Shown here piece after piece: positions 17,636 through 19,269 of a DNA stretch of 45,744 bases. The notes beneath the pieces are model-generated. The model searched no databases, had not been told where the DNA came from, and was given only the letters and a program-made list of their open reading frames with translations. This stretch comes from a virus (Duplodnaviria > Heunggongvirae > Uroviricota > Caudoviricetes), in the IMG/VR virus record IMGVR_UViG_2671180921_000030, positions 1 through 45,744 of that record; one strand, 5' to 3'. The position numbers and the translations under genes were made by a program. Each line of letters opens with the position of its first letter. The stretch's first letter is position 1.

Positions 17636-18217
17636 ATGACCACTCAAATCTCTGTTGAAACTCTCTCCCCGATCACCCATAACCAGATTCCTGTTATTAC
17701 CACCGAACTTTTGGCGCAGCTTTACGGCACTGAGCCGGTGCGTATTCGCCAGAATCATCATGAGAACAAAGTACGCTTCGTTGAAGGGAAACACTTTTTC
17801 AAAGTTGTTGGTAATGACCTTAAAGAATTGCGGGTCGCTTTAAACTACTCACAAAATTTGCAACCATCTTTAAGAGGGTTACAAATTTCCCCGAAAGCCC
17901 GCTCCCTCATACTCTGGACAGAACGCGGAGCAGGCCGTCATGCCAAAATGCTCGAAACCGATCAGGCGTGGGATGTGTTCGAAAGACTGGAAGACTGCTA
18001 TTTCAGACAAAAGGATCCGTCAGCGCCAGTTTCATGCCAGAAAAGTTACGACACGCGAGTTCTCTGTTATCAGCGAGGCGGTGTCACTGTTTCCACAATT
18101 CAGTTGCGGGATGATGATATTGTTATTTCCCTTGAGTCATGGCTGGAACTGGCGAGAGCCAATGGTTGGTTTGTTGTTCGCAGAGATAAACTGGTGGAAA
18201 GGCTGATGCAGCTTTAA
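17636..18217 (+). CDS. Hypothetical protein, possibly KilA-N/ORF6N-like DNA-binding
   Basis: Trimmed to MTTQISVETL; family assignment from memory only. Confidence 0.4.
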   Translation: MTTQISVETLSPITHNQIPVITTELLAQLYGTEPVRIRQNHHENKVRFVEGKHFFKVVGNDLKELRVALNYSQNLQPSLRGLQISPKARSLILWTERGAGRHAKMLETDQAWDVFERLEDCYFRQKDPSAPVSCQKSYDTRVLCYQRGGVTVSTIQLRDDDIVISLESWLELARANGWFVVRRDKLVERLMQL

Positions 18218-18313
18218 AAAAGTTCTTGCAATTTTAGCCATAAACTGCTTCAATCCCGGTACGCTTCGCAAAGCTGTATCGCGAGGCGAACCAAGCGCAT
18301 GAACTTTACCAGA

Positions 18314-18338
18314 ACCCGCCATTGAGCGGGTTTTGTTG
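18314..18338 (+). terminator. Rho-independent terminator
   Basis: Stem acccgc/gcgggt followed by a T run; closely resembles the terminator at 38554..38578. Confidence 0.45.
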
Positions 18339-18450
18339 TTTCTGGTACTGGCGAACCTGATGTTTCATTTCTGGAGCGCGATTCCTGGCGGAATACCTGG
18401 AATCGAGACATTCTGGTAAAATTGTGTTCAGTACAGGATGTGGAGGTGAG

Positions 18451-19020
18451 ATGAGAGAACTACCTAAAGTTTATTTTTTAGGAGTAGATGATGAGCTCGT
18501 CGATTATCTTGAAAAACAAGGGGAAGAGACGATACGAGAGATTCATCTTTCTAACAAAACCAATGTTGAGAATGGATACAAACTTCTGAACATTCAGATT
18601 GTTGGAATTGGCTCATCTTTTTTATTGCTGACACAGAAAACTAATTTCGATTTTCTCACCGCCGGAATTACCACATTTACATTACTATGGACATGGTGCG
18701 CCATTTACTTGGTATGTACTGGTTTATCTGTGAAGGTTAGGGGCCTGATCAATGCCCCTCCTGATCATCTATATCATGAAAAATATAAGGATATGGAGCC
18801 CTCGAGCTTTAAAATATTCGCTGATGCAGGATATTTAGGACCTGATAAGTTATTGCCGCTTATACGAAGGTATCGCCTTGTTGACTTGAGTGATACAGCA
18901 AGAGAGTTACTGTTGGAAAATGAGAAAATCCGCACGAGTCTCGATAAAGCAAGGATGTATACCATCCTTGCTCCAGTAGCTGCGATGTTTATCTCGGCTG
19001 TTTTTTTATATGTTCAATGA
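18451..19020 (+). CDS. AT-rich membrane protein moron
   Basis: Trimmed to ATG preceded by GGAGGTGAG; three hydrophobic segments; AT-rich by inspection. Confidence 0.5.
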   Translation: MRELPKVYFLGVDDELVDYLEKQGEETIREIHLSNKTNVENGYKLLNIQIVGIGSSFLLLTQKTNFDFLTAGITTFTLLWTWCAIYLVCTGLSVKVRGLINAPPDHLYHEKYKDMEPSSFKIFADAGYLGPDKLLPLIRRYRLVDLSDTARELLLENEKIRTSLDKARMYTILAPVAAMFISAVFLYVQ

Positions 19021-19150
19021 CTGAGTCGGCAGAATCTCCAACAAAAACACGACGTGTAGCAAAGTCTGCAGTACTTTGTGTTGGAGTTGGTTTTGGTGCC
19101 ACGGGTTGCTGAGGTTTATTTTCACCTTGTGGCTTGTTTTTTTCAGACAT
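18989..19150 (-). CDS. Small Pro/Gln-rich protein
   Basis: 53-aa ORF MSEKNKPQGENKPQQPVAPKPTPTQ... with AAAGAGGA upstream; convergent overlap with 18451..19020. Confidence 0.35.
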   Translation of the reverse strand: MSEKNKPQGENKPQQPVAPKPTPTQSTADFATRRVFVGDSADSVIEHIKKQPR

Positions 19151-19244
19151 AAAAATCCTCTTTGTTTGAATTGTTACTTTTGGCGATTTAACGATATCAA
19201 ACACGAGTATATACCGCCAGAAGCTTAATCTGGCACTCCATCTG

Positions 19245-19269
19245 GCCCCGGCATGTCCCGGGGCTTTTT
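19245..19269 (+). terminator. Strong rho-independent terminator upstream of the holin
   Basis: 7-bp GC stem gccccgg/ccggggc, 6-nt loop, T5. Confidence 0.5.

Follow-up and report, generated by a model that had tools for sequence, protein, structure and literature searches.

What lies between the late antiterminator gene Q and the lysis genes of a lambdoid prophage, and how much of it is cargo of the late operon? The question is raised here by the window, i.e. the whole stretch of 45,744 nucleotides (nt) analysed, taken from the Caudoviricetes record IMGVR_UViG_2671180921_000030. The window is a lambdoid prophage in which the genes for a DUF1367 protein, a YbcO nuclease and Q (DUF1133 family) are followed by the interval studied, and then by a lambda-S-family holin, an endolysin and Rz/Rz1. 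An earlier note on this DNA had read positions 17636-19269 as a single cluster of three accessory genes (morons) behind a tR' terminator at 17449-17466. With moderate confidence, the Q-to-lysis interval is better described as three independent mosaic units than as a single moron cluster. These are an IsrK/C4 antirepressor module (17358-18217), a probable late promoter unit (18226-18343), and a cassette of two convergent genes encoding a membrane protein and a 53-amino-acid (aa) partner, which is the cargo proper (18346-19270), between the probable tR' and the holin gene.

Placing the late promoter changes which genes count as Q-dependent cargo and, here, corrects the annotation. In lambda, the late promoter unit is made of PR', qut, the 6S RNA and tR'. 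The elements proposed for the corresponding unit of the window are the following.

18226-18254, plus strand: probable late promoter PR', with -35 TTGCAA, a 17-nt spacer and a TG-extended -10 TTCAAT
18263-18290, plus strand: near-invariant initial transcribed region GCTTCGCAAAGCTGTATCGCGAGGCGAA, 28 nt, candidate Q-loading/pause region
18310-18343, plus strand: probable tR', also the end of the isrK-ant transcript (terminator scan; 10-bp stem and T-run at 18310-18335)

The comparison set was formed of 80 viral contigs carrying the same Q family together with genome and phage loci, giving 82 loci besides the window (L numbers below designate loci). A block equivalent to 18226-18345 is found in 81 of these 82, standing directly after Q in 49 loci and after an isrK-C4-ORF6N insert in 32. 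The 83 sequences, window included, fall into 44 distinct versions of the block, whose alignment shows a -35 conserved as TTGCAA or TTGATT and, 17 nt further on, TTCAAT with a TG extension; where the block follows Q directly, the geometry TTGATT, 17 nt, TTCAAT is kept. The GCTTCGCAAAGCTGTATCGCGAGGCGAA segment is nearly identical across the 44 versions. The tR' hairpin is swapped among relatives for at least four different G+C-rich hairpins, always with a stem and a U-run. As these hairpins are out of register with one another, RNAalifold reported no stem for them, and they were read straight from the alignment. Downstream of tR', the relatives diverge immediately, with at least 12 junction classes. 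Thus, a conserved promoter and leader, a variable hairpin and a divergence starting after the terminator point to a PR'-qut-tR' unit cognate to this Q, with a mosaic boundary behind it.

By these comparisons, 18226-18343 is quite likely the PR'-qut-tR' unit of this Q family, and the antirepressor module is apparently inserted between Q and PR' in some phages only. The likelihood is put no higher because the hexamers of the promoter are weak and its dependence on Q is a prediction. As in lambda, a constitutive-type promoter downstream of Q would give a terminated leader RNA of about 80 nt, the unit is tied to a Q family and the late genes come next, whereas there is no sequence similarity to the lambda unit, the -10 is weak and a 0.87-kb insert separates Q from the unit in the window. 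Q-modified polymerase starting at PR' would read through tR' and through the terminator at 19265 into the lysis genes, the holin gene lying about 1.0 kb from the probable tR'. Two features of the sequence weigh against the assignment: TTCAAT lacks the conserved A at position 2, with 4/6 hexamer matches, and a consensus scan made no promoter call. The same 18226-18343 segment could instead be an IsrJ-like small RNA (sRNA) gene.

A related arrangement is seen in Salmonella phage SW-37 (L013 3560-3679), in which isrJ (Rfam, 101.7 bits) starts 45 nt past an AnrP-like gene, behind TTGCAA-17-TATATT, in a position and geometry matching those of 18226-18343. IsrJ may, by analogy, be the terminated leader RNA of a Gifsy-type late promoter, comparable to the lambda 6S RNA, in which case a published Salmonella sRNA would be reframed.

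Upstream of this unit, 274 nt separate the stop of the Q gene from the first open reading frame (ORF) of the interval. The earlier note had rightly predicted a DNA-binding protein for this ORF, with a terminator behind it that is found at 18310-18335. Its description as a late-operon moron with its own terminator has to be abandoned, the gene product being an antirepressor by family, apparently under IsrK/C4 control, and the gene lying upstream of the probable late promoter. The elements concerned are listed below.

16807-17361, plus strand: Q-type late antiterminator, DUF1133 family (Pfam DUF1133 6.3e-108, Phage_antitermQ 3.2e-06; PHROG 753 'anti-termination protein Q-like' 2e-81)
17358-17387, plus strand: promoter P_isrK (TTGACT, 18 nt, TATATT), overlapping the Q stop codon (promoter scan, 10/12 matches)
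17381-17433, plus strand: c4-a1b1 target element (Rfam RF03163, 49.8 bits, gathering 46.7)
17394-17470, plus strand: IsrK sRNA (Rfam isrK RF01394, 74.4 bits, gathering 50), with its terminator at 17449-17466 from the terminator scan
17419, plus strand: b1 site UUAGCAC
17499-17583, plus strand: C4-type antisense RNA, the STnc1160/orf45 region of Gifsy-1 (Rfam RF01695, 78 bits, gathering 45, full length 1-87)
17555, plus strand: C4 loop b' GUGCUAA, complementary to b1 and b2
17588-17594, plus strand: b2 target site UUAGCAC, a second copy of b1 just upstream of the ribosome-binding site of the leader ORF
17610-17639, plus strand: leader mini-ORF MSKCTELSL, 9-12 codons, GTG at 17601 being a possible start (found by reading the sequence itself); its stop overlaps the antirepressor start (ATGA)
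17636-18217, plus strand: ORF6N antirepressor, AnrP/Ant-like, 193 aa (Pfam ORF6N 9.5e-19; PHROG 2379 'anti-repressor' 9.6e-93, full length; Shine-Dalgarno (SD) sequence GGAG 9 nt upstream)

The three Rfam families matched above their gathering scores (c4-a1b1, isrK and C4) are all on the plus strand and in the expected order. By its sequence, 17358-18217 is a regulatory module of the Gifsy-1 isrK-orf45-anrP or P1 immI type, that is, already known biology, and some version of this switch occurs in about 27% of complete E. coli genomes. The module was compared with those of VT2-Sakai (L012), SW-37 (L013) and E. coli 300709. The P_isrK hexamers are identical across all three, and the interacting sites covary in a fully compensatory manner, b1/b'/b2 being UUAGCAC/GUGCUAA/UUAGCAC in the window and UUGGCGU/ACGCCAA/UUGGCGU in VT2-Sakai and SW-37. 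Such compensatory change implies that co-resident prophages differ in their C4 immunity specificity. An RNA duplex scan in which C4 was slid along the leader was uninformative, as it ignores intramolecular structure, and the comparative covariation was used in its place.

In Gifsy-1, the order is antQ, the isrK promoter, the 77-nt IsrK, orf45 with its C4-like STnc1160 region, anrP and the isrJ terminator (Hershko-Shalev et al. 2016, PMC4825925). The IsrK terminator is partly read through, giving a long transcript of about 910 nt on which the short IsrK, acting in trans, opens the orf45 ribosome-binding site, anrP being translated via coupling (PMC4825925). The window shares with Gifsy-1 a Q-like antiterminator, an isrK promoter, a 77-nt terminated IsrK, a C4-like region, an ORF6N-type antirepressor, a short-RNA terminator and lysis genes; its predicted long transcript, from 17394 to about 18343, would be about 950 nt, and the leader stop and ant start likewise overlap as ATGA. 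Unlike in Gifsy-1, the long orf45 frame is interrupted, the b-site specificity is UUAGCAC instead of UUGGCGU, and the position of isrJ is taken by a different short RNA unit with no Rfam isrJ match in the window.

The immI operon of P1 and P7 comprises the c4 antisense RNA, icd and ant, with C4 processed from the same transcript as its targets and its specificity set by covarying loop and target sequences. The window resembles P1 immI in having a1/b1 sites upstream and a second site beside the ribosome-binding site of a short ORF, which in the window may be coupled to the antirepressor gene. The differences are an ORF6N protein in place of P1 Ant1/2 as the antirepressor, a leader ORF far shorter than icd, and a location between the Q gene and the probable late promoter of a lambdoid prophage.

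By these analogies, the module would work as follows. A constitutive promoter would yield the 77-nt IsrK RNA with its a1/b1 sites, most transcripts ending at 17470; those that read through would carry the C4 antisense RNA and the leader mini-ORF coupled to the ORF6N antirepressor. The pairings of C4 and IsrK at b1, b' and b2 would set the translation of the leader and hence of the antirepressor, which would inactivate the prophage repressor and promote induction. The mini-ORF can be regarded as the analogue of the orf45/anrP and icd/ant coupling arrangement, and translational coupling is plausible from the sequence; in the predicted fold, the 5' part of the leader ORF pairs with the antirepressor SD and start codon in a hairpin that sequesters them. 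One observation does not fit this scheme well. The 55-aa orf45-like frame is broken by a stop at 17598, 38 nt short of the ant start, so that the overlap comes from the 9-12-codon ORF only and the coupling may differ from that of Gifsy-1.

The antirepressor itself is modular. Its residues 1-125 are 90% identical to the 'ant' product of the Stx phage VT2-Sakai, the C-terminal third is unrelated, and relatives carry P22AR or KilAC C-terminal domains, which suggests exchangeable target-recognition domains. The SW-37 gene between C4 and isrJ, which accompanies a different Q family, encodes a homologue only 51% identical over 98% of the length.

That the whole 17636-19269 segment is late-operon cargo of three morons behind a tR' at 17449-17466 is very unlikely. 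TTGACT-18-TATATT right after Q does recall lambda PR' with its short terminated RNA, and a more distant Q (L007) also has TTGACT at its stop codon. However, this promoter and RNA are those of IsrK/c4-a1b1 and belong to the ant module. In VT2-Sakai, P_isrK accompanies the ant module in the nin region, where the Q downstream of it is an unrelated one, and the module is missing from the 49 same-Q loci that keep the 18226-18343 unit directly after Q; P_isrK is therefore not the Q-cognate promoter. In addition, the Gifsy-1 isrK promoter is active without Q (PMC4825925). A hairpin right after Q thus need not be tR': the one in the window terminates the IsrK/c4-a1b1 RNA (Rfam) and is part of a switch known experimentally from Gifsy-1. 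The distance of 1.9 kb once given between tR' and the holin was correct as a number, the hairpin it started from being mislabelled and the probable tR' lying at 18310-18343. Likewise, a cargo cluster between tR' and the holin does exist, AT-rich and bounded by terminators, and is formed by the membrane-protein and small-protein genes with the antirepressor left outside. Its elements are given below, together with the holin gene that follows.

18407-18422, plus strand: conserved box GACATTCTGGTAAAAT, TG-extended and -10-like, about 30 nt upstream of the membrane gene, putative promoter
18451-19020, plus strand: inner-membrane protein, 189 aa, phrog_11870 (function unknown; PHROG 2.4e-107), SD GGAGGTGA
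18989-19150, minus strand: small hydrophilic Pro/Lys/Gln-rich partner, 53 aa, phrog_14506 (PHROG 6.1e-33), with motif RRVFVGDSAD and a basic tail, SD AGAGGA
19191-19199, minus strand: conserved extended -10 TGATATCGT, about 40 nt upstream of the small gene, candidate promoter of that gene
19216-19234: conserved hairpin GCCAGA...TCTGGC, GCCGC...GCGGC in Trabulsiella (stem replacements across loci)
19244-19270, plus strand: intrinsic terminator closing the cassette, stem 19244-19265, about 100 nt before the holin gene (terminator scan, 8-bp stem, 7 GC)
19368-19709, plus strand: lambda-S-family holin (Pfam Phage_holin_3_1 1.6e-27; MKM dual-start motif)

The cassette displays two marks of a moron, namely a patchy presence at a mosaic junction and a base composition unlike that of its flanks. 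It occurs in 257 of 5426 complete E. coli genomes (about 5%), in 5 of 50,697 phage records and in 6 of the 82 Q-related comparison loci, and is not a core late function of all related phages, in line with what the earlier note expected of cargo. The G+C content is 0.39 for the membrane gene and 0.41 for the cassette, against 0.49 for Q, 0.52 for the holin gene and a window mean of 0.476. Terminators stand on both sides, and conserved -10-like boxes precede both genes, with no full consensus promoter. The strong terminator that had been predicted just before the holin gene is present, and its stem (19244-19265) shows compensatory changes across loci. From its position, a transcript of the membrane gene would run antisense over the whole small gene.

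The convergent 53-aa Pro/Gln-rich ORF with a strong SD, also foreseen in the earlier note, is equally real, and is Lys-rich too. It overlaps the 3' end of the membrane gene by 32 nt in the window, and the 3' overlap is 20-32 nt in Trabulsiella, Serratia, Yersinia, Leclercia, Pantoea, Morganella and phage pPE4. Across nine diverged loci, its indels preserve the frame, and changes are most frequent at third codon positions (958, against 574 at first and 492 at second positions, i.e. about 1.8 times the others); the kept frame and the codon-position test rule out a chance ORF. The small protein has no match in Pfam, NCBIfam or PADLOC. Its gene is convergent to the membrane gene in 11 of the 12 distinct intact lineages examined. 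On the minus strand, TGnTATyGT is kept in all eight aligned loci and in L094. The block upstream of the small gene also precedes a different reverse gene in E. coli 300709 (L003) and in L029, which fits a promoter and 5'-untranslated-region (5'-UTR) unit. Upstream of the membrane gene, a box of the general form GACATTnnGGTAAAAT is found in most lineages; it is kept in the Trabulsiella, Serratia and Leclercia loci and in the distant L106, and is degraded in Yersinia (L008).

The membrane protein was described from the outset as AT-rich in its gene, with a strong SD and three transmembrane (TM) segments. The first two points hold and three TM segments are plausible: two segments are strongly hydrophobic (68-93 and 169-189), a Gly/Ser-rich one is moderately so (45-62), and the AlphaFold2 model has three long helices with a mean predicted local distance difference test (pLDDT) score of 80. 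Both soluble regions are probably cytoplasmic, judging from the charge distribution. The protein has 104 homologues, nearly all of 189 aa, in Escherichia, Klebsiella, Citrobacter, Enterobacter, Salmonella, Serratia, Yersinia, Pantoea, Proteus, Providencia, Morganella and Sodalis. A profile search extends the family to 97 clusters (50% identity) of 160-200 aa, including Burkholderia. The conserved positions include the Gly/Ser-rich first hydrophobic helix (VGIGSSF), W80, P104-x-x-LY and RRYRL. Neither the profile search (1.84 billion representatives) nor an alignment search (5.8-billion-sequence set) returned a named or Pfam-annotated family member, and no holin or spanin match was found in Pfam or PHROG. 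The PycTM effector model of PADLOC gives a full-length match to one distant member of the family (1.5e-8).

Outside E. coli, the cassette was found in Pantoea, Morganella, Trabulsiella, Serratia, Yersinia, Leclercia and phage pPE4. In the Enterobacterales loci with identifiable flanks, the pair follows the Q gene and a terminator and precedes the holin gene, and the flanking genes vary in type: Q may be DUF1133, Q21-type PF06530 or another, the holin may belong to the lambda S family, to holin_2_1 or to others, and the endolysin may be GH24, GH19, T4-type or an L-Ala-D-Glu peptidase. Phage pPE4 (L112; PP818812.1, 'Actinobacillus phage vB_Apl-pPE4') is 92% identical to window 17301-18346, its cassette allele being 52% identical; its host label, Actinobacillus pleuropneumoniae, is odd for such an enterobacterial-looking module.

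Relatives hold other cargo in the same slot, among them a DUF2441 protein facing a 66-69-aa gene and a 76-aa gene facing a 92-aa gene, both as convergent pairs, as well as AraC-family regulators and proteins with a TolA C-terminal domain (L019 6575-7339; L047 5669-6407; L003 3031-3525; L048 5746-6516; L044 7012-7725; L093 6588-7562). tRNA genes in the slot were ruled out. The slot thereby resembles the lambdoid cargo site between tR' and the holin gene, which holds stx in Stx phages and nmpC in DLP12, in position, presence/absence polymorphism, low G+C, flanking terminators and alternative cargoes. Unlike stx and nmpC, the cargo of the window is a conserved convergent pair of unknown function that is also found beside cI in distant phages.

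These distant homologues beside cI are 23-28% identical to the protein of the window (profile E-values of 3e-28 to 1e-17) and keep a convergent Pro/Lys-rich ORF of 42-53 aa that again has a basic tail and whose motif, phi-F-x-D-S/H-A-E, is related to that of the small protein of the window. The small ORF starts 15 nt past the cI stop on the same strand in L106, is the last gene of an operon containing cI in L107, and follows a ribbon-helix-helix gene or another small gene in L100-102 and L111. Even L105, a very distant non-phage member, has a convergent proline-rich ORF of 45 aa. The conservation of the pair in the cI-side relatives marks it as an old functional unit that has settled in both classic accessory sites of temperate phages. 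Repression of the membrane gene by cI in L106 was considered and dropped, as no convincing operator repeats are shared between the region upstream of the membrane gene and the cI-cro region. Literature searches by protein accession, PHROG identifier and topic returned nothing on this cassette.

The pair is a new, uncharacterised member of the prophage accessory cassettes, and its architecture appears to be that of a portable inner-membrane protein with two or three TM segments, encoded on the late strand, with a convergent disordered partner of 53 aa under its own conserved minus-strand promoter. What might it do? A model of a membrane effector restrained by a small partner is put forward tentatively. 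The small partner would be made during lysogeny, from its own promoter in the window and with cI elsewhere. The small protein, or head-on transcription with antisense overlap, or both, would restrain the membrane protein, and Q-dependent late transcription, or in relatives the loss of cI-linked expression, would tip the balance. Once freed, the membrane protein would act on the membrane as an exclusion, abortive-infection or toxin-like effector. The full-length PycTM match of the distant family member points in the same direction. More doubtful is the wider proposal that the pair is an undescribed two-component prophage system, widespread among temperate phages of Proteobacteria, in which a membrane-disrupting effector distantly related to the PycTM/SLATT type would be held by a small disordered restrainer wired to lysogeny, through co-transcription with cI in some phages and head-on transcription against the late operon in others. 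Loss of lysogeny or infection stress would release the effector, with a lysis-linked kill switch, exclusion or abortive infection as the result.

The earlier note had guessed at an exclusion or abortive-infection factor; such a role of the membrane protein is possible, and gains some support from the distant relatives beside cI. The homology search did not bear it out, the protein being without a match in Pfam, NCBIfam, PADLOC (E<=0.1) and a PDB sequence-profile search, and showing no similarity to the described exclusion or abortive-infection families (SieA/SieB, Imm, RexB, PycTM, CBASS 2TM). Like RexAB, PycTM and CBASS 2TM, the membrane protein is small and helical, with a presumed 2-TM hairpin and probably cytoplasmic helices, and its distant relatives adjoin the repressor gene, as lambda RexAB lies next to cI. 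Unlike RexAB and Pycsar, the protein of the window has no significant match and no cyclase or RexA-like sensor, and its partner is a convergent, disordered protein of about 50 aa. Several further results, like the lack of database matches, weigh against the effector model. Fold searches with the membrane-protein model returned generic helical bundles only, with no specific structural neighbour. The PycTM model matches just 2 of 71 family members, which makes it a hint and not a family assignment. A Salmonella locus (L098) lacks the partner gene. Finally, in Pantoea and Morganella the membrane gene comes directly after tR' without a promoter-like box, so that it looks there like a plain late gene.

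This last arrangement is what would be expected if the pair were an accessory of the lytic cycle, in which a late membrane protein would tune lysis or block superinfection or re-adsorption and the small gene would damp leaky expression. Such a role also agrees with the place of the membrane gene on the late strand, first after Q/tR' and before the holin gene in every Enterobacterales locus examined, whatever the holin type. It is nevertheless unlikely, for the cassette is absent from most phages sharing Q and the lysis genes, the holin already has its own dual-start antiholin motif, and the distant relatives are encoded next to cI, well away from the lysis genes. Moreover, a terminator stands between the membrane gene and the holin gene, a -10-like box lies upstream in most lineages, and the membrane protein has neither a holin or spanin family match nor the obligatory linkage to lysis genes of a lysis protein. 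An addiction-type toxin-antitoxin pair, with a membrane toxin under a convergent antisense RNA as in txpA/RatA and the small protein incidental, would account for the convergent genes with their conserved 20-71-nt 3' overlap and for the structured, conserved plus-strand 3' region antisense to the 5' UTR of the small gene. It is quite improbable, given that the 'toxin' of 189 aa is far above the size of type I toxins, that the small ORF is under coding selection with a peptide motif kept across very distant loci, and that the genes do not overlap in the distant non-phage L105; the pair thus departs from the type I make-up of a small hydrophobic toxin peptide and a non-coding antisense antitoxin. 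With the model of a restrained membrane effector tentatively preferred, the pair is a concrete candidate for a defence or toxin-like system new among those encoded by prophages, and one that occupies both classic sites of lysogenic conversion, beside cI and between tR' and the holin gene.

The remaining genes named at the outset are located as follows.

15921-16520: DUF1367 protein
16520-16810: YbcO nuclease
19713-20189: endolysin

The holin gene has a lambda-like dual start (window 19359-19376), with M-K-M at 19368 and an upstream GTG at 19359, and by this motif probably encodes its own antiholin. Directly past Rz/Rz1, in the position of lambda bor, a reverse-strand ORF of 300 aa (21068-21970, minus strand) in DNA of lower G+C is a candidate for a further accessory gene. 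Near the left end of the window, SdsR/RyeB with SraC/RyeA (463-607) and the RalA antitoxin sRNA of RalR/RalA (2169-2347) mark the chromosomal neighbourhood and a further prophage-type module.

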